Below, piece by piece: positions 11,717-59,472 of a stretch of DNA of 64,000 nt. The first letter of the stretch is position 1, and each line of letters starts with the position of its first letter. The notes beneath the pieces were generated by a model. The model was not told the origin of the DNA. It did no database searches and saw nothing but the letters and a program-made list of their open reading frames with translations. The stretch is taken from the NCBI GenBank assembly GCA_000004985.1, contig GG738845.1. One strand, written 5' to 3'. The position numbers were made by a program, and so were the translations under genes. The DNA is from Naegleria gruberi (Eukaryota).

Positions 11717-14700
11717 TTAAATTCTGTTATTTCTCATGAGGGATTGGTAATTGAAAGAGGTTGGGGATGGAGATTCAGTATTATTGACATCAGAGTGTAA
11801 GGAAACCAAAGATAAATCCAATGGAAGAGCAGCTTTTGGATCTCTTTCCAAGTTTTGTGGAATTTTGTGGAAACCAAACTTTTTAGCCAAATCAGTTGGG
11901 TGTTGAGGAGGATTTAAGAAACCACACTTGCACAAGAAGCAATAGTAAGTGGTCATCAATTCAATAACCTTTGGACAAGTAACATTGGAATTTTCCAAAC
12001 CTTCCAAAGTGTGAGTGTTATCATACCATGGACGCTTGGCAGTCATCTTCAAGTCATAATCATCAGTGAAATAGGTTACCAATGGATACAATACATTTTC
12101 TTCAACAACCTTTCCAGTTTCAGTTTCAGCACTTTTATCTCTATTAACAGTAGCTTGATATAACTTTTCCTTCCATTCCTTGAATGGCAATGGCTTGATA
12201 CTGTAACCAAGCTTGTTACCACATTCGAATAATGAATTGAAGAAGAATTCGTGAGGATTGACCAAGTGATAAGCTTGATGTTTAACAACAGAGTCCATAG
12301 TTCTTGACAAGTGAACAATGGCACCAGAAATGAAATCAACAGGAGACATATCCAACTTGGAGAGTGGCATATCTGGATAGTAACCCATTTGGATACAACC
12401 CTTAATCATACGACACAAGAAGTCATCTGGATTCCAGACACCAGTCTTGGCGTGACCTGTAATATAACCTGGTCTGTAGATACAAACTGGTAAACCTCTC
12501 ATACGAGCATTCATGCACAACTTTTCAGCAACATACTTGGATTGTGGATAACCAGTCAAATCTTCGTGATATGGAAGTGTGGAATCTTCATAGACATCAG
12601 TGAATTCCTTATATTGTTCAGAGTCAAAAACAGATGTTGTGGAAACATAGTGAACTGGAGTCAACTTTTGACCAGCACAAGCCATCTTTAAAATTTCACG
12701 AGTACCATTAACGTTGGAGGCCTTCAACTTGTCATAACTGTAGAGCCAATGGACAGCGGCACCATTGTGAACAATGATATCAATAATGTTGGTCATTTCT
12801 TCAAACTTGTTTTCATTCAAACCCAACAATGGTTTAGTCAAATCTCCCAAAACTGGAATAATTCTCATTTCAACAACTTGAGCCAAGTTATTTCTGTTAA
12901 TAGAGTTGACAGAGTCCATTTCTTCTTCTTGATCCATTTCCTTAGAAGTCCACAAGAAGTGATATGACAAGAGGGATTCCAAAATACGTTTTCTGGCCTT
13001 TTCTTCATTTTCAGCTCTAACCAAACAGTAAATCTTGGCAGTTGACTTCTTCAAAAAGTCAGCCAACAAGAATGTACCCAAGAAACCAGTACATCCAGTA
13101 ATCAAAATGTTCTTTGGATTTTGCCAAACCTTGGAATAGGAAATGAAATCGTTAAAGTTCAATTGATGTTGAGGTCTGATAAATGCTTCCAAGTGAGTAT
13201 CCATAGAAACATCTTGAATCAAGTGTTGATTTTTGGTTTGACCACTTCTCAATTGTTCAATAGCAACAGCGAGAGCAGAGATGGTTGGAGCTCTGAACAA
13301 TAATTCAACTGGGAGTTTTTGAGCACCTTCAACTTGATTTCTGATCAACAAGGTCAATGTTGTAGCATTGATAGAGTGACCACCCAAATCAAAGAAGTTA
13401 TCATGGATACCAATGTTATCAGTGTTACCACGTGATAAAACATCAGCCCAAATTTGTTGTAATTGCTTTTCCAAATCATTTCTTGGAGCAACATATCCTT
13501 CTTCATCACCAGAATCCAAAGATGGCATGTGAATTGGATTTGGTAAATCTTGTTTTTTGATTTTACCGTTTGGAGTCAATGGAATCTTTTCCAATGGAAC
13601 AAAGTATGAAGGAATCATATAATCTGGTAATCTGGTTCTGATGTGTTGTCTCAAATCCTTAATGATGGTCTTGATTATACTAGATTCCATATAATTTCCA
13701 TTCTTGGCGTTGAGGGTAGAATTCTTTTCTAATTCAACCTTATCCAAAACAAAGTATGTAACAATACGCTTTTCATTTTGAATGCAATCTTCTCTGACAA
13801 TGGTAACACTTTCCTTAACAAATTCGTGAGAGTTCAGACAGGTGTTAATTTCACCCAATTCAATTCTGAAACCTCTAATCTTAATTTGGTCATCAGCTCT
13901 ACCACTGCATTCAGCATCACCACTAATTAAATATCTACCCAAGTCACCAGTTCTGTACATTCTATCCACATAACCACTGGTCATGAATGGATTTGGAATG
14001 AACTTTTCACGAGTATCCTTTTCCTTACCCTTATAACCTTGAGAAAGATGAGGAGATCTCATGTAAATTTCACCCATTTCACCAATACCTGACAACATGA
14101 ATTTGTTATCACGAGAAGTGAATCTGCTCAATGTCAATGCTTGAACATCTTGCATACCTCTACCGATTGGTAAAATATCCTTCAATTGTTCGAAAGGAAT
14201 ACCAGTTTCAATACACTTTTCACCTGGACGTGGGACCATATAGTAGGTAACAGAACGTTGAGTTTCAGTTGATCCATACAAGTTGATAACCTTAACGATT
14301 GGTGCAATGTCACACAATCTCTTAACGAATTTCTTAGACAAGACATCACCAACAAAGAATGCATATCTCAAATGATTCAATTGGAACAATTGAGATGATG
14401 TGTTAATGACAGATGCAGCAGTAGCCAACAATTGACCCATTGGTGGAGTCAAACAACAAACTGTAATCTTCTTTTCTTCGAACCATTCAGCAAGACGACC
14501 TGGATTGACAATATCTTCATTAGATGGAATATACATGGTACATCCCAAGAACCATGGAGTAAAAATGTCACGTTGCAAAGGATCGTGAGAAATACCAGAT
14601 TGCATTGAGAATCTGTCATTTTCACTAAAGCCAAAATATTGTTTCATCCATGGATAATAGTGAGTGAGAGGACCGTGTCTTCCCAAAACACCCTTTGGAA

Positions 14701-16126
14701 TACCAGTACTTCCTGATGTATAGGTGCAAACAGCAAAGTCATCTTGTGTAATTTTAACATTCAAAGTTGGATCTTCACTCAAATTGGAATCGTTATAATC
14801 AGAGTAGACATTCTCATTAAGAATATCAGTCATGGATTTCAATACTGTTACAAACTTGGTCTTTTCATTGATAAAATCAATGACAGACTTTGGTAATTGA
14901 CCAGCAGCTTCAATTAAAATAACTGCAGATGGTGTTGAAACTTCCAAACAAGTGATAATTCTGTCGGCTGGATAAGCAGGATCTAACATGTTAAAAATTG
15001 CACCACATTTCAATGTAGACAAGATGGCCAACACAACTGGACAAGATCTGTGACCAAAGATTGTCACAACCTCCTGTCTCTTCAATCCCTTATGAAGTAA
15101 GTGTCTTGATAACTGATTGGAAACTCGATTCAATTGTTCAAAGGTAACACTTTCATGATTATCAACCATGGTAATTCTATCTGGTGTTTGTTTAGCCTGT
15201 TCTTGGAAAATTTCATGAATTGGACCAATGAAATCGTTATTCAAAGCTTTATCAGGGTGTGGTAAAACCTTCTTGGCATATTCAGTCACCAAACTGATAT
15301 CATAAATAGAGACATTGCAATTACTCGACAATACTTGTTCAGAAACTAATTTCAATTGATTCAATAATTCAGCCATTCTCAATTCTGTGAACAAGTTATT
15401 TTGATAAATGATACTGAGTTCGTTAGATTGAGTATTGTAGTGTAAATTTAAATCAACATTAGAAATAGGGAATGGTTTGTCCACCTTAGTGAATGGACCG
15501 GCATAGGAACTATAAGAAACTTGAACGAGTAAATTTGTATCAATATTACCAGCATTAGCATTGTTAGACAAAAATTGTTCGAGAATATTCTTTACATTAT
15601 TGAAATATGATAAATGATTCAATGAATCATTGTATGATTGTTGAATATTGGAAAGTAACTTTTTAAAACTATACTTTTCAGTAGCATCACTTTGTGAAAT
15701 ACCTTCAAATGTATCTTCTTCATTGGAAGGCATTGGAATATTGGCTGACAAGATGAATGAATCCTTTTCTTCATTACAATCTTGCAATACACCAATTAAA
15801 AAGGTTTCTTCATATGTATATCTACATAATAATACAACAAATAAGGAGAGAATGAATGAATTCTTAGTAAATAATTGTTGTGCCTCTGAATCTCCATTCT
15901 TGATAAACAGTTCTCTAAATTTGCTACTATTCAACACTTGTTCCATTGAAATGGTATATTCTAATGGTTTATACTCAACTTGGGTAGTAGAGGTAGTAGA
16001 AGTTGATGAAGCTGCTTCATCATTTAACATAACTCTAGGATAATCAGTTGGCAATTTCAAACTTTGATTTTGACTCAACAATTGTGACCAAAACGACAAT
16101 TGTTTTTCCTTCAACAATGAGGCCAT
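11717..16126 (-). CDS. LYS2: L-2-aminoadipate reductase (Lys2): NRPS-like adenylation-thiolation-NAD(P)H reductase domain protein, about 1470 aa
   Basis: Long collinear matches to S. cerevisiae Lys2: TYTSGSTGIPKGVLGRH, HDPLQRDIFTP, PGRLAEW, YRTGDLGRY, GRADDQIKIRGFRIELGEI, NGKIKK, FFDLGGHSINAT (phosphopantetheine Ser), ITGCTGFLGTFLLADFL (Rossmann) and YPQSKYVAEKL. The listed start at 16192 is GTG; the first ATG (MASLLKEKQ) is at 16126. Confidence 0.9.
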   Translation of the reverse strand: MASLLKEKQLSFWSQLLSQNQSLKLPTDYPRVMLNDEAASSTSTTSTTQVEYKPLEYTISMEQVLNSSKFRELFIKNGDSEAQQLFTKNSFILSLFVVLLCRYTYEETFLIGVLQDCNEEKDSFILSANIPMPSNEEDTFEGISQSDATEKYSFKKLLSNIQQSYNDSLNHLSYFNNVKNILEQFLSNNANAGNIDTNLLVQVSYSSYAGPFTKVDKPFPISNVDLNLHYNTQSNELSIIYQNNLFTELRMAELLNQLKLVSEQVLSSNCNVSIYDISLVTEYAKKVLPHPDKALNNDFIGPIHEIFQEQAKQTPDRITMVDNHESVTFEQLNRVSNQLSRHLLHKGLKRQEVVTIFGHRSCPVVLAILSTLKCGAIFNMLDPAYPADRIITCLEVSTPSAVILIEAAGQLPKSVIDFINEKTKFVTVLKSMTDILNENVYSDYNDSNLSEDPTLNVKITQDDFAVCTYTSGSTGIPKGVLGRHGPLTHYYPWMKQYFGFSENDRFSMQSGISHDPLQRDIFTPWFLGCTMYIPSNEDIVNPGRLAEWFEEKKITVCCLTPPMGQLLATAASVINTSSQLFQLNHLRYAFFVGDVLSKKFVKRLCDIAPIVKVINLYGSTETQRSVTYYMVPRPGEKCIETGIPFEQLKDILPIGRGMQDVQALTLSRFTSRDNKFMLSGIGEMGEIYMRSPHLSQGYKGKEKDTREKFIPNPFMTSGYVDRMYRTGDLGRYLISGDAECSGRADDQIKIRGFRIELGEINTCLNSHEFVKESVTIVREDCIQNEKRIVTYFVLDKVELEKNSTLNAKNGNYMESSIIKTIIKDLRQHIRTRLPDYMIPSYFVPLEKIPLTPNGKIKKQDLPNPIHMPSLDSGDEEGYVAPRNDLEKQLQQIWADVLSRGNTDNIGIHDNFFDLGGHSINATTLTLLIRNQVEGAQKLPVELLFRAPTISALAVAIEQLRSGQTKNQHLIQDVSMDTHLEAFIRPQHQLNFNDFISYSKVWQNPKNILITGCTGFLGTFLLADFLKKSTAKIYCLVRAENEEKARKRILESLLSYHFLWTSKEMDQEEEMDSVNSINRNNLAQVVEMRIIPVLGDLTKPLLGLNENKFEEMTNIIDIIVHNGAAVHWLYSYDKLKASNVNGTREILKMACAGQKLTPVHYVSTTSVFDSEQYKEFTDVYEDSTLPYHEDLTGYPQSKYVAEKLCMNARMRGLPVCIYRPGYITGHAKTGVWNPDDFLCRMIKGCIQMGYYPDMPLSKLDMSPVDFISGAIVHLSRTMDSVVKHQAYHLVNPHEFFFNSLFECGNKLGYSIKPLPFKEWKEKLYQATVNRDKSAETETGKVVEENVLYPLVTYFTDDYDLKMTAKRPWYDNTHTLEGLENSNVTCPKVIELMTTYYCFLCKCGFLNPPQHPTDLAKKFGFHKIPQNLERDPKAALPLDLSLVSLHSDVNNTESPSPTSFNYQSLMRNNRI

Positions 16127-17770
16127 GATGCAATTAAAGTGATGATGATTTGAAAAATGTAAATTTACAATGATACTCGAAAGTAGTAACACACTAGTTA
16201 ACTAGTAGTAGGGGAAGGGGAATATGTGTGCAAGTAGCAGAGCAGCAGCAGCAACAGAGAGAACAATTGAATGAATAGAAACAACACAGTCTTGTTGTAG
16301 AGTTGTTTTTTTCGCTCTTTTTCGTGGTGCATCTCCACAGAGACCAAAAGTAAAACGCGAGAGGTGAATCCACATTTTAAATATCAAGCCATTTGAATTT
16401 ATTTGGCGATTTTTCCTCTAGGGATTTTGGGTCATTTCAATTAAAATTCAGCGAATATGTTTAAATTTTCCACTGTGTTGCACTACAATTTACAATGGTG
16501 ATGATGTGTTTGTTGAGGAGAAATTTATAGAAGTTTAAAAGTTGTTTTAAAATTATTGAAAATACATGTATTTCATAGTATTCAATGAATGAAGGCACAG
16601 AGGAAGGATGGGAGAAATGAGGAGTAACAACATTTATGTGACCTCAAATTTACAACACACTTCAAATAACCAAGGGGGGACATAGTTATTTTTAGACAAG
16701 CTACTTGCACGGTAAAGTTTTGAAGCAACCATAGGGAGAAAGGCTTTGCTTTCTTTCTTGATATATACAATAAATGGTGAAATGAAGATTTCAGAATAGA
16801 CAGTCAACTCAATGGTATATCTAAAACTTTTTTCTGTTTTTTTGGTATTATTGTAGTTATTGTGTAATATTAGTGTAAAGTTCCCATAACATTTAAAGTA
16901 CCATACCATTGATATTTTCTCGCCACCATTTGAGAGATAGGTGAATAGTATCTATATAATTATACTCTAAAGAGCCGAGTCGTCAGAATCAGTATTGATC
17001 TTGGTGTATCCCACAGGAGGTAAGTAGTAGGAAATACTTCGTCAAAAAATGACTAGCGAAATTTTGTTGTAAAGAGATGAGTATTATGTCTATATATAAA
17101 CAACCTCAGCCAATAAAAATTCATGGATTCGTTATAATAGATATATATTATCAGTGGTAAAATATTTGTCTGTCAATATGACTTATTAGAGTAATGTAAA
17201 CTTGATGAAAGTTGTTCGTCATTTTATCATTATTTTATAATAAGGAAAAAAATTAGTTGGTAAACTATACTTATTTTTGGAGTAAATAATTGATTTCAAT
17301 CAACTATTATTTCTATAACCGTTTCTGCTAATGTCTATAAACGACTGGAAAAATATGAGAACAAACAAGCATAAATTTATTTATTAAATTAGCACAGGAT
17401 AATAGAATAGTGAAAATCCAGTTGTTTATTCAATTTTGATGGAAACTGATTTTCTTTTCAAAAAATTGTCATCTTATGCATTCATTGAAGCTCAAAAATA
17501 AATTTTTTTATTTATTTTAATTGAAAATAATGAGTTTCTTGTACCATAATATTTTTTAAAAAATGTATGACTTCAACAAATTCTTCACTATGTCCCCCCT
17601 TGCAAATAACTCCGTAAAATTATAATTGTTTGTTTTTAGAATACTTTACATTTGTGTTTGGCCGTATTACTCTCCTTTTAAATCATGTTGTAACGGTCGT
17701 CTCAATTTCATTTATGACATTTTAACCTTATTTAAGATTTACATTACTCCTGTGGAGGGATTTTGGTTTA

Positions 17771-18373
17771 TTATCTATTTAGAATATTGTAAAACCTCCA
17801 CTTCCATTCAGATTTCAAGTAGAACGAAGAAAGAGATGCAAGCTCAATGTGTTCATTGTAAAACCTTTCAGAAATTTTAGAATAATCAATAATAGTGAAG
17901 AGTTCAGAAAATATCAATTCCGAGTTGAGATTACTATTCAACAATTTCAAAATATCCTTTCCATAATTTTGTAAGATATATTCACACATTAATTTTGAAT
18001 ATTCATTATCAAATATTTTAGTATTCAATAAATCAGTAATTTGTTCAACATTATCGAGAGGATAATTTTGATTTTTTAATTGTATTAATTCATCTATTAT
18101 TGATTTTGATACTTTCATACTAAATTTATATACATCATACGGAATGTTTAATTCTACAGTCTTATTATAATCTCTAATGACACTCAGATATGATGTCAGC
18201 ATACTGAGAATAGAAATCGGTAAAAGTATTCGGAATGGTAGTGAATTTTTAATTATTTGATGGTATTTAATCCGAATAAAATTAATAGTGATTTGTTTAA
18301 TATTACTATTGGATGATTGTTGGCTGAGGTGATGAAGGAATTTTGACGATTTGAGTGAGGAGAAGAATTTCAT
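17771..18373 (-). CDS. Hypothetical K/N/S-rich 200-aa ORF; alternatively a 3' exon of the upstream AAA gene
   Basis: ATG in A-rich context (agaaaaaaATGAAATTC) only 45 nt downstream of the stop of the same-strand gene 18418..20217. A GTAATT...TTTAG interval would fuse the two in frame. No recognisable domain. Confidence 0.3.
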   Translation of the reverse strand: MKFFSSLKSSKFLHHLSQQSSNSNIKQITINFIRIKYHQIIKNSLPFRILLPISILSMLTSYLSVIRDYNKTVELNIPYDVYKFSMKVSKSIIDELIQLKNQNYPLDNVEQITDLLNTKIFDNEYSKLMCEYILQNYGKDILKLLNSNLNSELIFSELFTIIDYSKISERFYNEHIELASLSSFYLKSEWKWRFYNILNR

Positions 18374-18417
18374 TTTTTTCTAAATTGATTTTAAATTATT
18401 TTGAATTCATGGAATGT

Positions 18418-20217
18418 TTATAATTTAGATTGAATTACATTCAAACTTCTTCTTAGTTGAATATCATCTCTTCTATTCAAAACAACAACACTAACCCTAT
18501 CCAGCTCAGGAGACACCTCCAAATGGATATGATCATTCTCCGCAAACAAGTGATCAGAAGCTGCCAGTGGCGTAAGAATATGATTTTCTAACACACCTGT
18601 AACAGTAAGGGAAGGTCTATATCTCTTCATGAGCCATATCACAACATCCTCACTCCATGTCATTTTGAATCTTTTTTGAGTAAAGGCAAATGTTGAAAAG
18701 ACATTCAATTGTGTCACAATTTGATTACAAAGCTCAATATCTGAGAAGGCAAAGAATGGTATAATAGCATTAAATTGATGGAGGAATGCATCAAAGCATT
18801 TTGGTTGTTTGCTTTCTTCTGTCGATTTGTTAGAATTATTCAAATGATCGACCAGTATTGGTGTGATTTGATGTCTAAATTCAATCACTCTATCTAAGGC
18901 ATCAATGGTTGAGTATGAAGAAGTAACTTGGTCAACAAACTTTGAAGAAGGTGGAGGAGGTGCAACCTTTGTACGATTCATTCTTCGTTTAAAATCATAA
19001 TCATAGGCATCCTCATTCTCGTAACCTTCAAATCCATTATCCCAATTACCTATTGTCTTTTTCTCCTTTTCGTATTTCTCTATTAAATTATTTGGTCCAC
19101 TCTCCAGAATATTCTTTTTCACAACTTGGTCACTTATTACAGAAATGCAAATAAATATGGCCTGGCTGGCATCTATTATTTTCACCAAATCATCCTCGTT
19201 ATCTTTCTTCTTTTCTTTTTTCCCAGGTTCTAGTGAGGATGATTGCTTTCTCGTTTTTTGCTCTAGAATAATGCCAGATCTGAAGAGTTGATGTAAAAAT
19301 CTGAATACAGATGGATGGGCACTCTCCATATTATTGAATACAATTACAGCATTTGGAGTGGTCTCTAGAATGACATTTAATTGACCTAGCATGTAATTGA
19401 AAGGTTCAGAATATCTATACTCATCAGAAAATTGTACAAGATTTGATAAATCTTCCTCCTCGGTAAAATAGCTCATATCTAAGAGTACAAATGGTCTGCT
19501 TTGTGATTGGGCAATGAGTTTTGACAGATAAATTTTTCCACATCCAACAGGTCCAATTAAGAACAAAGAGAGTGGTATCTTTGTTTGCTTCCTTATCTGA
19601 TGATTATCTTCCATATTTGAAATGAATTGATTTTCATTCGTGAGTTGATGATAAGAGTAGGACCATATTGTAGACTGACGAAGTAAGCAGAAACAAACTG
19701 TCTTGATGGCAATTTCCTGATTCACCAAACACTTATTTAAATAATTTTCCAACTGTAAGAGTGGAACAGTCTTTCTCTGCACACCCTTCTTTCCGCCGCT
19801 CATAATTGGTCTATCAAATCTTTCAATAATAAAAGGTGGTCTTATTTGGTGGTTATTGTCTCCCAAATAATCAAATTTGTTAGAGGCTTCGACTGGAACT
19901 GAATTCGATGCTGCCGAAGAAAATAAATTCCAATATTGATGTTGGAATAACATGTTGGTAGCCTTGTCCTTTAATTCTTGAAAAACTCGCATAAATCCAC
20001 CATTTGAATGTGTTGTTTCCTCTTGTTGATCAATGATGAGATTTTCATTCCGATATTTATCAGTTGTGTTTTCTAATGATGCCTTCACATTGGCTGCTGA
20101 TGATGAGGAATTAATTAATTTACTCTGTGTTGTTGTCATATTGTTTTGGTTTGATTGTCCTTGTGAAGGAAGATTTGATGATGAGGGTTGTTTATTTCCT
20201 ATCGTTAAATTGGACAT
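18418..20217 (-). CDS. AAA+ protein of the ClpA/B D2 (AAA_2) type with degenerate Walker A (GPVGCGKI) and Walker B (VIVFNNME) motifs, probable non-catalytic ATPase-fold protein
   Basis: [18 protein letters not shown] parallels ClpB [41 protein letters not shown] parallels [47 protein letters not shown] parallels [29 protein letters not shown]. A D2-small-like C-terminus follows. No signal peptide, so it is not a torsin. Confidence 0.7.
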   Translation of the reverse strand: [599 protein letters not shown]

Positions 20218-20385: not shown

Positions 20386-23300
20386 ATGAAATCTTCAACC
20401 AGTAGAAATGAGTTGGGGAAATCTGGAGCCTCGTCATCATTAACTTCTGGAGAAGGTACACCTACAAAACCTATCAGAAGAAGAGCAGGAAGTACTAATC
20501 AAGGATCATCATCCACAACATCATCATCCGATAAAACCAAATCATCTCGTTCATCAACTGTAAGAGGCAACAATGAAAAGGATACTCCAACACCAACTAC
20601 TACATCATCAAAGGAAAATACCAAGTCAAAAGAAAATTCAAAAGAAAAGGAACCAAAATCCGAATCAAAATCGGAAAGAGGATCAAGCACACCTCTTATG
20701 CCTCCACCACCTAATACAGAAAAATGTACTCCTTTCTATCCTATTACCATGTTCCAAGAAAAATCAGCATTCGGAGCAAACTATAATGAAGGAGAATTTA
20801 TCGAAACACTCACTTATAAATTATTAAATGAAGTTAATAGAATTAATTCCAATAATTCGTCAAATGGATTTGGATCAAACAGTGCGAATCAAGAATTAGA
20901 GGACAAACAAGCTGATTATTTGGAAGTTTTTCAACAATTATTTCACAGAAGTATTGTTGATATGGAAAGATTAATGAAAGATGTAAATATTACTGTGGAA
21001 AAGTTGGTAAAAGAAACTGAAGCTGCATCTCAGAAACATCAGTCCAAATTACAAACATTTCATCAAGAGTTAGAGGTAGGTAATCTTTTTAAATTAATTA
21101 CTAATTAGCCATCAAGACAATATCAGAAAAATTCAAAAATATCGAAGATGTCATTAATCAAGTTGGTAATACTACTGTACAAATTGGTAATACTCTCGAC
21201 ACTGTAGATAAACAAAAGAGTAGAGCTATTGAAGCTAAACAATTGATGAAATTCTTTAATGAATTCAACAGCTATACCCCAGAACAATTCAAACACGAAA
21301 TTTTACCAAAGAAAAAGTTCAACCATGCCATCTTTAAGAAGAAGGGATCACAACATCGCGCTGCCAAAATTGTGCAAGAATTGTCCCTCATTGCTGCTGA
21401 TTTGACAAAGGTAGATTCATGTAAAAATGCTATTGCCAATATCAAATTATATAATGACGACCTTTTACAAAATTTATTGGAAGATTTTGCTCAATCTGTC
21501 AAGTTGAGTGAGGATCAAAGAAAACAAGGTATTAGCGAAATGAAGAAAAAGGCCAGAATTTTGCTTGATATTAAGAATGAATCAAAATGCATTGATCTCT
21601 ATGTAAAGATGAGATTTGAAAAATTCATTACCTTTACAACGGAGGCTGTTGAAAAACAATTGAAGGAAAATTTTGGAACACTCCTAAAAGATATAAAAGA
21701 ATTAGAGACTAAATTGGAATCTAAAAAACCTACCAAATCAGTTGTTGAAGAAGAAAATGAGGATGATGAAGATCAAGACGAAGAAAGAGGCACATCTACA
21801 GAAGTCTCTCAAAATAATACGAATAATACTGGTACAGATAAGTCTACGGATAGTAATGCAGAAAAAGAGGATATCGAATCTCTAGAAAATACTCTCGATA
21901 CATATAGACAACAACTTGATGAAGCTCGGTCTAACACTCGAGAAATTGTATATCAGGAATGTATCAATGCTGTCATTAAGAGTGTAAATGATGTTGAAGC
22001 ATACACAAACTTTTTAACAAGAGTTGAAAAGGCAACCTCATCAGAATATTCTATCATTTCTGAAGTATTTTCCAACTCTTCTAGAGATGTACTTTTACTC
22101 TTCCTTCAAAAGATTGTTGATGAAATTCTGGAAGAAATTGTGAGTTCACTCCTCAAAGAACCAGAAGAAGATAGATTGGAATCATACCTCAAAAATTTCG
22201 AAAAGATTTATAATACCACCATTAATTTTGTGGATAGACTGGTGACAGAACACTCTAACATTCCAACTTTGAAATCCAACTTGACAAGAAGCATTGAGAA
22301 TATCTTCTTTGTCAAAAAGAAGGGTTATGGAAGTGTAGAACAAAAATATGTCGATGGAAAGTATGAGGAGATTGTTCAACCAATTGAAGAAATGGAATCA
22401 CCAATATTACAACTCTTAGCTACCTCTCAAAAAACTCTTCTTTCTGGCTCCAACTTGCTACAAATTTTCAGCAACGCTATGCAAGTACCTGAACAAGTTG
22501 AAATGCTCAAAGATTATCCTCGATTACAATTGGATGTTATTGTAAACTTTATTCACACTAACACTGAATCATTGTTGAGATGCAAGAAACTGTCTCTAAA
22601 GAATGAAATCCCAAAGAATATGTACACTATTTTTGAATTGCTGAAAAATGCTGTTTGTAATTATGTAAAGAAGGGACTCGAATTTTCTGTGGCAACTATT
22701 TCATATGGAGCCAAGAAGGAACCATCCACAGATCTCTACTTGGCAATTCACTTGACAAATTCTGTACTCCAAAAAGTACAGAGACACTTGGAACAAAACG
22801 TACTGCCAAGCATTGTGTCTGTATCCTTGCCAATGCAATTACAATGTATCAAGCTGAAAGATGATTTATTTTCTACCCTCGAGTCATATGTTGTGAAAGG
22901 ATTGGAAATTATGTTAAAATCTATTGTAGAGTATTGTAAATTCATTTTGGAGAAGGAACAAAAGAATATTGCAGCAGACTATAAACCAAAAGAAAATGAT
23001 TCAAGGTTTGTCTTTGTAGAACATCAACCAACCCAGGGCTGCACAAAATGTTGTTCCTTCCTGACAACACACTGCGAACAGATTCAAACCTGTCTATTTG
23101 GTAAGAATAGAGAATACTTTTTGACGAAATTGGGTATGCATTTTTTCCAATTATTGACCAATACCCTTAAAGATATGTCAGTAAGCAATTTGGGAGCCAT
23201 TAAATTGATGAGAGATTTGTCAGAGTATCAGAAATGTATGAGACAATTCCAAGTAACAGTTATTGAAGATCAATTCGATACTCTCAGAGAAGTTTCCAAC

Positions 23301-23459
23301 GTTTTACTTGTCTTACCACAGAATCTTCCAGAAGTTGTCTCTCAATTAGAAAAGAATCCATCCGTGAAACATGAAGATGTTATTGCATTCATCAGAATGA
23401 GAAGTGACTATAGCAAGAATAAGACCATGTTTAAAGAGAAAATCCCTGATTTCCACTAG
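20386..23459 (+). CDS. SEC10: Exocyst complex component Sec10/EXOC5; two exons join(20386..21075,21117..23459)
   Basis: Exon 2 (AKQLMKFFNEF, IVQELSLIAADL, ISEMKKKARILL, CIDLYVKM ... LLVLPQNLPEVVSQLEKN) is collinear with human EXOC5 (AQKLMKYFNEF, IIQKLHLIAQEL, ISRMREVAAVLL, CVDVYIKQ). A 41-nt GTAGGT...TCAAG intron (21076..21116) joins it in frame to a low-complexity, coiled-coil N-terminal exon. An alternative in-frame GTAATC/TTAG pair (21080..21108) also exists. Confidence 0.85.
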
Positions 23460-56674: not shown

Positions 56675-57282
56675 TTTCCTCTCTTTATATAAACTGAAGA
56701 TGATAAAATGACTAGAGTTTGATGAGTGATGATGAACAACAAACGGTACTTTTTTTTTAAAAAATAAAATTAATTTGAATTTTAATTATCAAATTTCATA
56801 GAGGAGGATTGGTCACAACGGTCAACGTTTATCGATTCTCATCATGGCAAAAACGATGACGACACATGATTACGCGGCAAAGAGAAGAGAGAACTTTTGG
56901 ATAACAACTTGTATGAGACATTGTCAACAAAGACCGACTACAAGTGGATAATGAAAATTACTTGAAACAATTTCCAAATGAATCAATAATATTTTGAGTA
57001 TATGAAAATCCTGATATTGGTTGACTGAATCAGTCATTACAACACTATTGGAATTTTAGATTGAAATACCAAAAGCAATCAATGGAGTTTAATTTGGTAT
57101 TTACAAAAAATCAAAAAAGTTTAGTGATTAAAAAAATTGCAACAATATTACACTTCCGAATAGCTTGCCTTCCTTCTAATTGATCATCTTCATCATCAGG
57201 ATATTATTTAATTAGATAGATTAATAATTTAGTGATTTTTGGATGAAAGAAAACATCAAATTCTAGAAACTCTAATTTTCAT

Positions 57283-59472
57283 ATGAATAATTCAACAGGA
57301 GAAAAGACACGATCATCATCATCGACTTCCTATACACCCATTCTACAAAATCAACAACAACAACAACAACAAGAAGGTTATTATAGTATTAATAATACAG
57401 AAGATTATATGAGTTTTGATCCTCGTAGACAAAATTATCAGAGAGGAAGTACCAACTATCCATTCACTCCACCATCATTAGCCTACACATCCCGATCGGT
57501 TTCATCCCCTAGAATTTCAATACCATCAAATAATGATTATTACGTAAGAGGAGGTACATCATCGTTTCAACAACCTTCAGCATTTTCACCGAGAGCTACT
57601 TCAAATGTACCAAATAGTTTTAATTCTAATTATTTACAAGTTTATGGCGTTCCTAAAAGCAGTAGAATACAGGATATGCCAATGGGATCATTGTATACCA
57701 GCTCTTTTGAGGATAATTATGGTAGAACTAGTGTAGGAGAGGATTATTATGAGGATGTGGAAGAGGAAGATTCTGATTTCACAAATGGAGAAGATAATTA
57801 TCACATTGTTACAGGAGATGGAGGGGATTTTTATGCTGATGTCAATAATCAAAATAATGATGTTTATTATACTGACAATGAAAGAGAGGAAAACCCAGAA
57901 CAAACATTATTGAATGAAAGAGAATCTAAAGAAACACAATATGAATCTTCGACGATGAAAAATTGGATCAGTAGATTATGTTCTTGTTGTTGTTCATCAT
58001 CAACATCTCGTCACCACGAAAATGAAACCTATAGAAAGGATACACCAACATGGAGATTATTCTTTGCTACCATGTGTTTTTGTGCCATGCAATTGTGTTG
58101 GAGTTTGCAAATTTCTCAGCTTACACCTCACATTTTGGAAATGAATTTTCCAAAAATTTGGATCACCCTAGTTTGGTTGTGTGGACCATTGTCTGGAATT
58201 ATTGTCCAGCCAATTGTTGGAGTTTGGTCAGATAGGTGTAAGAGTTCACTAGGTAGAAGAAGACCATTCATTCTTGTTGGGTCAATATTTATGGTGCTAT
58301 CTCTTTGTTTCATTGTCAACTGTTTGGATTTGGGGTATTTATTAGGAGACACTATAGATAACACAACCTGGTCTCTCACATTTACAATTATTGGATTTTG
58401 GATTCTTGACATTTCTCTCAACACACTACAAGGACCAGCCAGAGCTCTTGTAGCTGATATTGCTGTGCAGAGAAAGCAGGATAGTGCCAATGCCTTTTTC
58501 ACATTCTGGGTTGGACTTGGTAATGTAATTGGGTATGGTAGTAGCTTTATAGATTTTTCAGAATACATTCCAATGTATGCCACTCCACTGTGTAACAAGA
58601 CATGTGTCAATATGAAAGTCTCCTTCTACTTTTCCTCCATTGTAATTATTATTTCATGTATTGGTACTTTGATATTTGCAAAGGAGCAGAGTTTGGATGT
58701 TTTGAAAAATACTCTCTTCGACCAAGGAAAGAAACCAGACCGATTACAAGAGGATGACATGAATTTGAGGAATAGATTGAAGAAGTGGTTCTGCAATCCA
58801 AATCCAATTGTGAGACTTGCAAAGTACATTTACAAACTTCCAAGAACTATGAAAGTTTTGTGTATTTATCAGTTTTTCTCTTGGATTGGTTGGTTCTCCT
58901 TCTTGGTGTATATTACAGATTGGGTGGGAGAATCAGTTTTTAGAGGAAATCCTGATCCGCAACATCCTGCTTACCAACTCTACGAGACTGGAGTCAGATT
59001 TGGCTCTTTTGGATTGGCTGGGTTCAGTATTGTATCAATGATTTTCTCTCCTTTCATTCCAAGAATTTCCAAACGATATGGCAGCAAGGTACTTTTATTT
59101 ATTGCTCAAGTGATACTGAGCTTGTTATTATTAATGACCTTTTTCGTCAAGAACAAATACTGGGCAATTGTATTGATTAGTTGTTTTGGTGTTCCGTACT
59201 CTATTTCCAATACTCTTCCTTTCACTCTTTGCTCCACTTCGGCTGATGACTTTAATAAGGGTACCTATATGGGTATTCTCAATGTTTTTATAGTTGTTCC
59301 TCAGTTAATCATGTCAGTATTTAATCCAGTGATAGTCTATGTATTTGATGGTAATACTGTAGCTACACTAGTAGGTGGATCTATAGCAAGTTTATTCTCT
59401 TCAGTAATTGTTTGGTTCGTTAGAATTCCAAAAATTAGAAAAAAGAAGAGGAGAAATAACAACACGAATTAG
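57283..59472 (+). CDS. MFS permease of the SLC45 / plant sucrose-H+ symporter (GPH) family with ~240-aa low-complexity N-terminal extension
   Basis: Twelve predicted TM segments and the family signature LCGPLSGIIVQPIVGVWSDRCKSSLGRRRPFILVGS (PxxGxxSDR...GRRRPF) after TM2. A poly-Q stretch is encoded by (CAA)n at 57355..57372. Confidence 0.8.
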   Translation: MNNSTGEKTRSSSSTSYTPILQNQQQQQQQEGYYSINNTEDYMSFDPRRQNYQRGSTNYPFTPPSLAYTSRSVSSPRISIPSNNDYYVRGGTSSFQQPSAFSPRATSNVPNSFNSNYLQVYGVPKSSRIQDMPMGSLYTSSFEDNYGRTSVGEDYYEDVEEEDSDFTNGEDNYHIVTGDGGDFYADVNNQNNDVYYTDNEREENPEQTLLNERESKETQYESSTMKNWISRLCSCCCSSSTSRHHENETYRKDTPTWRLFFATMCFCAMQLCWSLQISQLTPHILEMNFPKIWITLVWLCGPLSGIIVQPIVGVWSDRCKSSLGRRRPFILVGSIFMVLSLCFIVNCLDLGYLLGDTIDNTTWSLTFTIIGFWILDISLNTLQGPARALVADIAVQRKQDSANAFFTFWVGLGNVIGYGSSFIDFSEYIPMYATPLCNKTCVNMKVSFYFSSIVIIISCIGTLIFAKEQSLDVLKNTLFDQGKKPDRLQEDDMNLRNRLKKWFCNPNPIVRLAKYIYKLPRTMKVLCIYQFFSWIGWFSFLVYITDWVGESVFRGNPDPQHPAYQLYETGVRFGSFGLAGFSIVSMIFSPFIPRISKRYGSKVLLFIAQVILSLLLLMTFFVKNKYWAIVLISCFGVPYSISNTLPFTLCSTSADDFNKGTYMGILNVFIVVPQLIMSVFNPVIVYVFDGNTVATLVGGSIASLFSSVIVWFVRIPKIRKKKRRNNNTN

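Follow-up and report, generated by a model that had tools for sequence, protein, structure and literature searches.

A 64,000-nt stretch of Naegleria gruberi DNA (contig GG738845.1, assembly GCA_000004985.1; hereafter the window) carries on its minus strand, at 18418..20217, a complete coding sequence without introns for a protein of 599 aa plus stop codon. The sequence points to a Skd3/CLPB-type nucleotide-binding domain (NBD) turned pseudo-ATPase, which would be addressed to the peroxisome and act there without ATP turnover; we give this combined reading about an even chance of being correct. The open reading frame (ORF) is 100 % identical to an annotated 'predicted protein' of N. gruberi (XP_002683585.1, EFC50841.1, NAEGRDRAFT_45254, UniProt D2UYT2). 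All coordinates given below for this gene refer to the minus strand.

With regard to domain content, the Pfam family AAA_2 matches residues 217–364 (E 3.8e-9; 37.2 bits against a curated cut-off of 27), and a Pfam scan of the 599-aa protein at E ≤ 1 returns AAA-type families alone, with no N-terminal, NBD1 or middle-domain family and no ankyrin repeats. The best matches among PDB sequences are the human CLPB/Skd3 NBD (E 7e-11), followed by the NBD2 of ClpB, ClpC and Hsp104, and a second aligned stretch, residues 476–553, covers the small subdomain. Both parts of such a module are present: a large alpha/beta subdomain (residues ~150–372; 19102..19770), delimited by AAA_2, by alignment to the Skd3 profile and by a confidently modelled core, and a helical D2-small-like subdomain with a C-terminal beta element (18463..18906), delimited by conserved columns, the Skd3 alignment and a predicted local distance difference test score (pLDDT) of 75–90. 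These values come from an AlphaFold2 model built on a 17-sequence alignment of the family described below, with a mean pLDDT of 65. Confidence in the AAA+ core reaches 85–95 and falls below 50 at residues 1–75 and 88–126, within an N-terminal region (residues 1–126; 19840..20217) that is of low complexity, mostly disordered and free of any Pfam domain. It is equally low at residues 374–380 and 393–437 of a long variable insertion (residues ~365–437; 18907..19125), which separates sensor-1 from the Arg-finger helix and occupies the place where Skd3 has its specific insertion. A Foldseek search with the model places the Skd3 structures 7xbk, 8zrs, 7ttr and 7us2 on top (E 9e-19 to 1e-17) and ClpB NBD2 next, over ~430–445 columns. 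By its predicted content the protein is a stand-alone ClpB-NBD2-type AAA+ module behind a disordered N-terminus. The original prediction, made from the DNA letters alone, had aligned it to the second AAA domain of ClpB/Hsp104, including D2-small, and had reported no N-domain, first AAA domain or middle domain; the former is borne out by AAA_2, the PDB-sequence alignment and the fold search, and the latter agrees with the Pfam scan.

The family was assembled in two steps: a word-indexed search recovered orthologues in N. fowleri, N. lovaniensis and Willaertia magna together with one environmental contig, and profile searching, carried out exhaustively over 1.84 billion representatives, contributed about a dozen further members, one from the heterolobosean Acrasis kona (P0013) and the others from metagenomes or assembly GCA_006365135.1. 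The resulting 17 sequences comprise three from Naegleria along with those of Willaertia, Acrasis and environmental protists; their overall identity is 27–64 %, and Pfam matches AAA_2 in 12 of them and Ank in none. A further homologue search with the family alignment gave no new members, ClpB-type candidates predominating.

Several comparisons indicate that the closest relatives of this family are Skd3/CLPB-type domains, not generic ClpB. Aligned to Skd3, the family profile reaches 152 bits (E 2e-43) and spans the full NBD, starting at an LExxL..Q..AI motif and including the small subdomain, as compared with 87 bits, over the large subdomain only, against T. thermophilus ClpB NBD2. Nine of the ten best non-family proteins by single-domain score in the search of 1.84 billion representatives combine ankyrin repeats with AAA_2 and ClpB_D2-small; the higher-ranked multi-domain matches (P0019–P0028) are tandem AAA_2 proteins, which rank high because the scores of their domains add up. 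In a rough neighbour-joining tree the family is monophyletic in 100/100 bootstraps, and Clp-type NBD2 domains are split from the family plus Skd3-type domains, again in 100/100. The spacing from sensor-1 to the Arg finger is 121 aa in N. gruberi and 54–150 aa across the family, set beside 58–71 aa (106 in one case) in Skd3-type and 37–46 aa in Clp-type NBD2 domains. Because a heterolobosean family shares the architecture of the Skd3 NBD, its sequences suggest that this architecture originated before choanoflagellates and animals. Skd3 has been described as first appearing in choanoflagellates (PMC7343390), and its NBD insertion, L507–I534, as unique among AAA+ proteins (bioRxiv 10.1101/2022.02.17.480866); both descriptions fit poorly with the expanded sensor-1-to-Arg-finger segment of the heterolobosean family.

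The C-terminal Ser-Lys-Leu

The protein ends in Ser-Lys-Leu (18421..18429), with a TAA stop codon directly after (18418..18420), and this tripeptide, which matches the pattern [SAC]-[KRH]-[LM], is a candidate type 1 signal for peroxisomal targeting (PTS1). In the 17-sequence alignment all members end flush at this position, Ser occupying −3 in 17/17 and Leu −1 in 16/17; the tripeptides are SKL in 13 members and SRL, SNL, SSL and SKK in one each. Among the 42 window ORFs of at least 150 codons, only two end in [SAC][KRH][LM]. The other of these, on the minus strand, ends at 58128 in -SKM (165 codons stop to stop); it overlaps a plus-strand ORF at 57246..59469 and may be a spurious antisense frame.

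Naegleria encodes Pex5, and the predicted PTS1s of N. gruberi are predominantly -SKL (PMC7549135). The N-terminus of the N. gruberi protein contains one basic residue within its first 30 and reaches a maximum KD19 hydropathy of 0.02; judged by N-terminal composition and KD19 hydropathy, neither a presequence-like N-terminus nor a transmembrane or hydrophobic segment is seen in the Naegleria family proteins. Because the S-K-L end is conserved, the host has Pex5 and uses -SKL, and the N-terminus shows no targeting-like segment, Pex5-dependent import into the peroxisomal matrix would be expected. Of all the links in our reading, this is the one at which observation is most loosely tied to what we infer from it.

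The foremost alternative is that S-x-L does not work as a PTS1 at all, and that the protein's place is the cytosol, a membrane to which an amphipathic or hydrophobic N-terminal segment would bring it, or, as for Skd3, the mitochondrial intermembrane space, its C-terminus forming a PDZ-type or structural motif. S-x-L-COOH also fits the class-I PDZ-ligand pattern, and the SNL and SSL variants (P0014 and P0018), which would be only weak PTS1s, still fit S/T-x-hydrophobic. Two environmental members, P0005 and P0016, combine a C-terminal S[KR]L with an N-terminal hydrophobic, transmembrane-like segment (KD19 1.76 and 1.61, respectively), which is unusual for PTS1 cargo of the matrix. In addition, Skd3 itself is mitochondrial and has a hydrophobic stretch (PMC7343390), and PTS1 prediction and fractionation or proteomics disagree for several N. 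gruberi proteins (PMC8134430). Set against this alternative are the optimal SKL in 13 of the 17 members and SRL in another, the preference for -SKL in a host that encodes Pex5, the N-termini of the Naegleria proteins, which resemble neither a presequence nor a transmembrane segment, and the final helix (residues 586–598), which in the AlphaFold2 model extends to the extreme C-terminus. On balance we consider it unlikely that the C-terminus serves some purpose other than peroxisomal import.

The possibility that the protein is one of the 'Gcp' proteins that co-occur with the mitochondrial type II secretion system (miT2SS) and have been linked to peroxisomes in N. gruberi was rejected, as Gcp1–16 include no named AAA+ family (PMC8134430), and it was not found in the PTS1 inventory supplements of PMC9512073.

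Degenerate catalytic motifs

Residue-level alignment to Skd3 reveals changes in four catalytic elements of the N. gruberi protein. The Walker A stretch GPVGCGKI (residues 222–229; 19531..19554) pairs with Skd3 GSSGIGKT, such that Thr is replaced by Ile and Lys is retained, and the Walker B stretch VIVFNNME (residues 291–298; 19324..19347) pairs with Skd3 VVLFDEVEKAHP, with Asn-Asn in place of Asp-Glu. At sensor-1, where Skd3 AIFIMTSN aligns with aifilvtd of the family profile, Val360 (19138..19140) replaces Skd3 N496, whilst at the Arg finger, where FLHQFNAII aligns with Skd3 FLGRINEIV, Gln481 (18775..18777) replaces R561. A canonical GKT or DE occurs at no other place in the alignment of the 599-aa protein to Skd3. 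The two Walker substitutions, Thr/Ser to Ile and DE to NN, had been read from the DNA in the original prediction, and the pairings with GSSGIGKT and VVLFDEVE confirm them; mapping the motifs by profile alignment moves neither elsewhere, and the losses prove to be lineage-wide, 12/12 members lacking the Walker A Thr/Ser and 15/15 the DE. Beyond these, the present analysis finds the -SKL end and a specific relationship to Skd3/CLPB, and shows that sensor-1 and the Arg finger are lost as well. Taken together, the replacements leave none of the residues that coordinate Mg2+ or activate water.

Across the family, Walker A reads G[PS]xxxG[KR][ILV][YF] in all 12 members that cover the site (Lys in 11, Arg in one), and Walker B reads [NH][NHQ] in all 15 that do so, with DE in none. 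Sensor-1 is mostly Asp, and Naegleria and Willaertia have Val or Ala there; at the Arg finger, 9/17 members have Arg, one has Lys and the Naegleria/Willaertia clade has Gln. The sensor-2 GAR of Skd3 is handled as an insertion in the family profile alignment and is thus unaligned. Near the GYVG pore loop a DEYRY sequence, a possible counterpart, aligns in Naegleria and Willaertia alone, the region being deleted or non-aromatic elsewhere and poorly modelled in N. gruberi (pLDDT < 50 over residues 271–275). Every Skd3-type and Clp-type outgroup sequence in the same alignment has GKT, DE, TSN and Arg intact.

In Skd3, either K387A or E455Q alone abolishes ATPase and disaggregase activity (PMC7343390), and N496K and R561G are loss-of-function changes (bioRxiv 10.1101/2022.02.17.480866). 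The N. gruberi protein holds the equivalents of four such lesions together, and ATP hydrolysis is therefore very unlikely. Since the Gly-rich loop and its Lys are conserved, binding of phosphate or nucleotide without Mg2+ may nevertheless occur.

A protein that is still an active, non-canonical ATPase or unfoldase would have to use substitutes, such as E298 at Walker B +3 and DEYRY, or borrow the catalytic groups of a hetero-oligomeric partner. Such activity would be compatible with the Gly-rich loop and Lys of Walker A (Lys in 11/12 members, Arg in the remaining one), with the acidic residue found two positions past the lost Glu in most members, and with the Arg finger kept in 9/17. The acidic residue, however, is not a compensatory novelty, because canonical Skd3 and Clp proteins have the same Glu (DEVE/DEIE); most family members are without the pore-loop Tyr, and in N. 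gruberi four catalytic elements are missing together, where any one of the substitutions E455Q, K387A, N496K or R561G suffices to kill Skd3. We accordingly regard continued activity as improbable, and the preferred reading is of a protein that is probably both non-catalytic and peroxisomal.

Gene model, selective constraint and surroundings

The window DNA is AT-rich (GC 0.26–0.38) and, given the full identity to the annotated protein, is nuclear DNA of N. gruberi; an in-frame TAA lies two codons 5′ of the ATG of the 599-aa ORF. The reference annotation of XP_002683585.1 is exactly this single ORF, ending at SKL. A second ORF of 200 aa (17771..18373), absent from the annotation, begins 44 nt 3′ of the AAA+ stop on the same strand. 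The original prediction had described both ORFs correctly, and had further suggested that they can be fused in frame through a GTAATT...TTTAG interval, yielding a larger protein with an additional 3′ exon. The arithmetic of this proposal is right: the interval (18380..18438) is 59 nt long, GT at 18438–18437 opens a codon, AG ends at 18380, and AAA AAA ATG then leads in frame into the 200-aa ORF. The short distance from stop to next ATG, which leaves little room for a promoter, and the shared strand might likewise speak for a two-exon gene. As biology, the proposal fails. Removal of the interval as an intron would delete VIQSKL, so that the conserved C-terminus, S-x-L in 16/17 members, argues against it. 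In N. fowleri, N. lovaniensis and Willaertia the orthologous genes consist of one unbroken ORF each, 1995, 1911 and 1623 nt long, respectively, and all end at the same place in QSKL-stop. Their downstream neighbours are unrelated to the 200-aa ORF, namely a convergent acetyl-CoA synthetase gene 77–116 nt away in N. fowleri and N. lovaniensis and an unrelated 747-aa gene in Willaertia, and tblastn found no trace of the 200-aa ORF at any of these three loci. With the only homologue of the 200-aa ORF being a 99 %-identical copy on an N. gruberi-like metagenome contig, and with the reference annotation stopping at SKL, a two-exon gene is very improbable, and 18380..18438 most likely comprises the last six codons, the stop codon and an intergenic spacer.

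The 200-aa ORF is probably an orphan gene in its own right, lineage-specific and no part of the AAA+ protein. Its sole homologue among 5.8 billion proteins is the 99 %-identical copy just mentioned, carried by a metagenome contig of 1.9 kb (ERZ929261) that derives from a strain resembling N. gruberi; its exact sequence is absent from the protein collection, and hence it is not annotated in the reference. By our own estimate, a 200-codon open frame is unlikely to arise by chance in DNA of ~30 % GC, and the codon-usage score is +0.06 in its own frame and −0.49 or lower in the five others. Four single-nucleotide polymorphisms separate it from the metagenome strain, two synonymous and two non-synonymous, and are uninformative. 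A single-sequence AlphaFold2 model predicts a helical domain at residues 80–170 (pLDDT 80–92), preceded by a hydrophobic stretch at residues 48–66. Pfam gives a sub-threshold Saposin-like match (E 3.4e-4; 21 bits against a cut-off of 27), a weak hint only, and a Foldseek search of the model against the PDB returned nothing significant, the best saposin-like match being AOAH at E 0.87. As the ORF has a single Cys, its product would not be a classical disulphide-bonded saposin. The existing AAA+ gene model is thus right and needs no extension, whilst a small, probable neighbouring gene is missing from the annotation.

Purifying selection on the AAA+ gene is strong. For the pair N. fowleri and N. 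lovaniensis, the ratio of non-synonymous to synonymous substitution (dN/dS, Nei-Gojobori) is 0.126 overall, rising to 0.30 across the N-terminal region and falling to 0.08 across the AAA+ domain. Conservation in the 17-sequence alignment is highest in the small subdomain and the C-terminal element, with IPFFxF, ENHxLTxLA and DHIHL among the motifs, and this distribution suggests that a conserved interaction surface is maintained and not a catalytic site. That the gene is a decaying, functionless relic of a ClpB/Skd3 paralogue, as the loss of all catalytic motifs and the long, low-complexity N-terminus and insertion could imply, is for practical purposes ruled out by these dN/dS values, by the conservation of the replacement residues and small-subdomain motifs themselves, and by the persistence of an intact ORF in five or more heterolobosean species and in some twelve environmental lineages. 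It is a real feature, not an artefact of annotation, and the gene is probably not a broken one.

With regard to gene order, N. fowleri and N. lovaniensis share CobW-TPR, rhodanese, BTB, AAA_2 and convergent acetyl-CoA synthetase genes, an arrangement not shared with N. gruberi. Here, the AAA+ gene is flanked by a Sec10 gene on one side and by the orphan ORF and a Lys2-like gene on the other. The former, an exocyst-subunit gene at 21243..23459 on the plus strand (Sec10_HB, E 5e-81), is preceded at 20386..21108 on the same strand by a 240-aa low-complexity ORF that is probably its first exon, with a short intron around 21080..21150. The latter, at 11717..16192 on the minus strand, encodes a large reductase resembling non-ribosomal peptide synthetases, with AMP-binding, PP-binding and NAD_binding_4 domains in a Lys2/alpha-aminoadipate-reductase-type architecture. 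Its 5′ end faces a 932-bp insertion (16671..17602) that is missing from the ~99 %-identical N. gruberi-like metagenome contig (L003, ERZ929261). This insertion has perfect 16-nt terminal inverted repeats, CAAGGGGGGACATAGT and ACTATGTCCCCCCTTG, and an 8-bp target-site duplication, GTTATTTG (minus strand), the empty site reading GGAGTTATTTGAAGTG; only one copy occurs in the window. It looks like a non-autonomous DNA transposon, specifically a miniature inverted-repeat transposable element with a target-site duplication of hAT-like length, that is polymorphic between strains.

Proposed role and relation to known systems

On the preferred reading, the protein would fold, and perhaps oligomerise, in the cytosol, where Pex5 would recognise -SKL and import it, already folded, into the peroxisomal matrix. 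There would be no ATP hydrolysis, although the GxxxxGK loop may hold a nucleotide phosphate without Mg2+, in the manner of a natural Walker-B 'trap' mutant, nor would the protein be a threading unfoldase, given that the family does not conserve the pore-loop Tyr. In the matrix it would more likely act, as a static and possibly oligomeric subunit, through its conserved small subdomain, either as a holdase in a permanently trap-like state or as a scaffold or adaptor pseudo-subunit. More speculatively, the Arg finger of most non-Naegleria members may reflect an ancestral role in donating this residue to an active partner, a role that would have been lost in Naegleria.

Besides the observations on the C-terminus raised with the alternative location, several points weigh against this scheme. 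The alignment on which the AlphaFold2 model was built comprises no more than 17 sequences, and the affinity to Skd3 rests on profile scores and a rough neighbour-joining tree of unnamed representatives. The Arg finger kept in 9/17 members and the retained Walker A Lys suggest a nucleotide-related role beyond that of a static scaffold. Searches of the literature and of full texts for XP_002683585.1 and its accessions found no paper mentioning the protein. Likewise, neither its accession nor its locus number is among the listed entries of the N. gruberi mitochondrial/peroxisomal proteome (PMC8134430), which is not to claim that the protein is absent from it.

Amongst known systems, the human mitochondrial intermembrane-space disaggregase Skd3/CLPB is similar in its single HCLR-clade NBD homologous to ClpB/Hsp104 NBD2, its D2-small-like subdomain and its extended sensor-1-to-Arg-finger segment. 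Unlike Skd3, the N. gruberi protein is found in Heterolobosea, ends in -SKL, and has neither a mitochondrial presequence nor ankyrin repeats; in Skd3 these repeats are needed for disaggregase activity, the isolated NBD being insufficient (PMC7343390). The family further differs from Skd3 in lacking the Walker A Thr, Walker B DE and sensor-1 Asn, to which the replaced Arg finger is added in Naegleria, and in leaving the sensor-2 GAR of Skd3 unaligned. With the NBD2 of ClpB, Hsp104, Hsp78, ClpA and ClpC, for which the Pfam models are AAA_2 plus ClpB_D2-small, the protein shares fold and Pfam family, and the family keeps both the LExxL..Q..A start motif and, past the Arg finger, the PFF-type strand. 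However, the N. gruberi protein stands alone, its catalytic motifs are gone, the profile score against Clp-type NBD2 is below that against Skd3, and in place of the GYVG pore loop the Naegleria clade appears to have EYRY, the other family members having no counterpart.

Other inactive or unusual AAA+ folds offer partial parallels. Torsins are related to ClpB NBD2, are single-ring proteins and have a non-canonical Walker A, GKN; LAP1/LULL1 have AAA+-like folds without nucleotide binding and regulate torsins by donating an Arg finger. Structure 5j1s was among the matches. The Pfam Torsin model nevertheless misses the N. gruberi protein, and only 2/17 members reach E ≥ 6e-4; sequence identity is 11–15 %, there is no signal peptide or endoplasmic reticulum context, and, unlike LAP1/LULL1, the Naegleria members have no Arg to donate. 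The D1 domains of Pex1/Pex6 and D2 of NSF have kept the fold and often nucleotide binding, have lost hydrolysis, and serve as assembly platforms. Those, however, are domains within active two-ring motors of the classical AAA type, on the cytosolic side of the peroxisome in the case of Pex1/Pex6, whereas in N. gruberi the dead domain makes up the protein by itself, is of the HCLR clade and carries a putative matrix import signal. Peroxisomal Lon (LONP2/Pln), in turn, is active as an ATPase and has a protease domain fused to it, and the N. gruberi sequence predicts neither.

Peroxisomes import folded proteins, and to our knowledge they possess almost no lumenal chaperone machinery apart from Lon. 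We put forward, as a tentative proposal that could well be wrong, that the protein is the founder of an undescribed eukaryotic family of Skd3-type domains, which lost hydrolysis before Naegleria, Acrasis and several other protist lineages split and was retargeted by a PTS1 to the peroxisomal matrix. Its task there may be that of an ATP-independent holdase, or that of a pseudo-subunit with a regulatory or adaptor function, peroxisomal Lon and piggy-back import being examples of what it could serve. If this is true, the protein would rank as the first of Hsp100 type in the lumen of the peroxisome, and the 'Skd3-specific' NBD architecture would predate animals and choanoflagellates. The family also provides a natural experiment, in that an HCLR-clade domain that has lost both Mg2+ ligands, the catalytic Glu and sensor-1 is yet under strong purifying selection, and it is thereby a tractable case for what dead AAA+ folds do. 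A conserved, PTS1-bearing module of the Hsp100/Skd3 type would be a new candidate for a part in peroxisomal proteostasis, or in aiding import, within the lineage to which N. fowleri, a pathogen of the brain, belongs.

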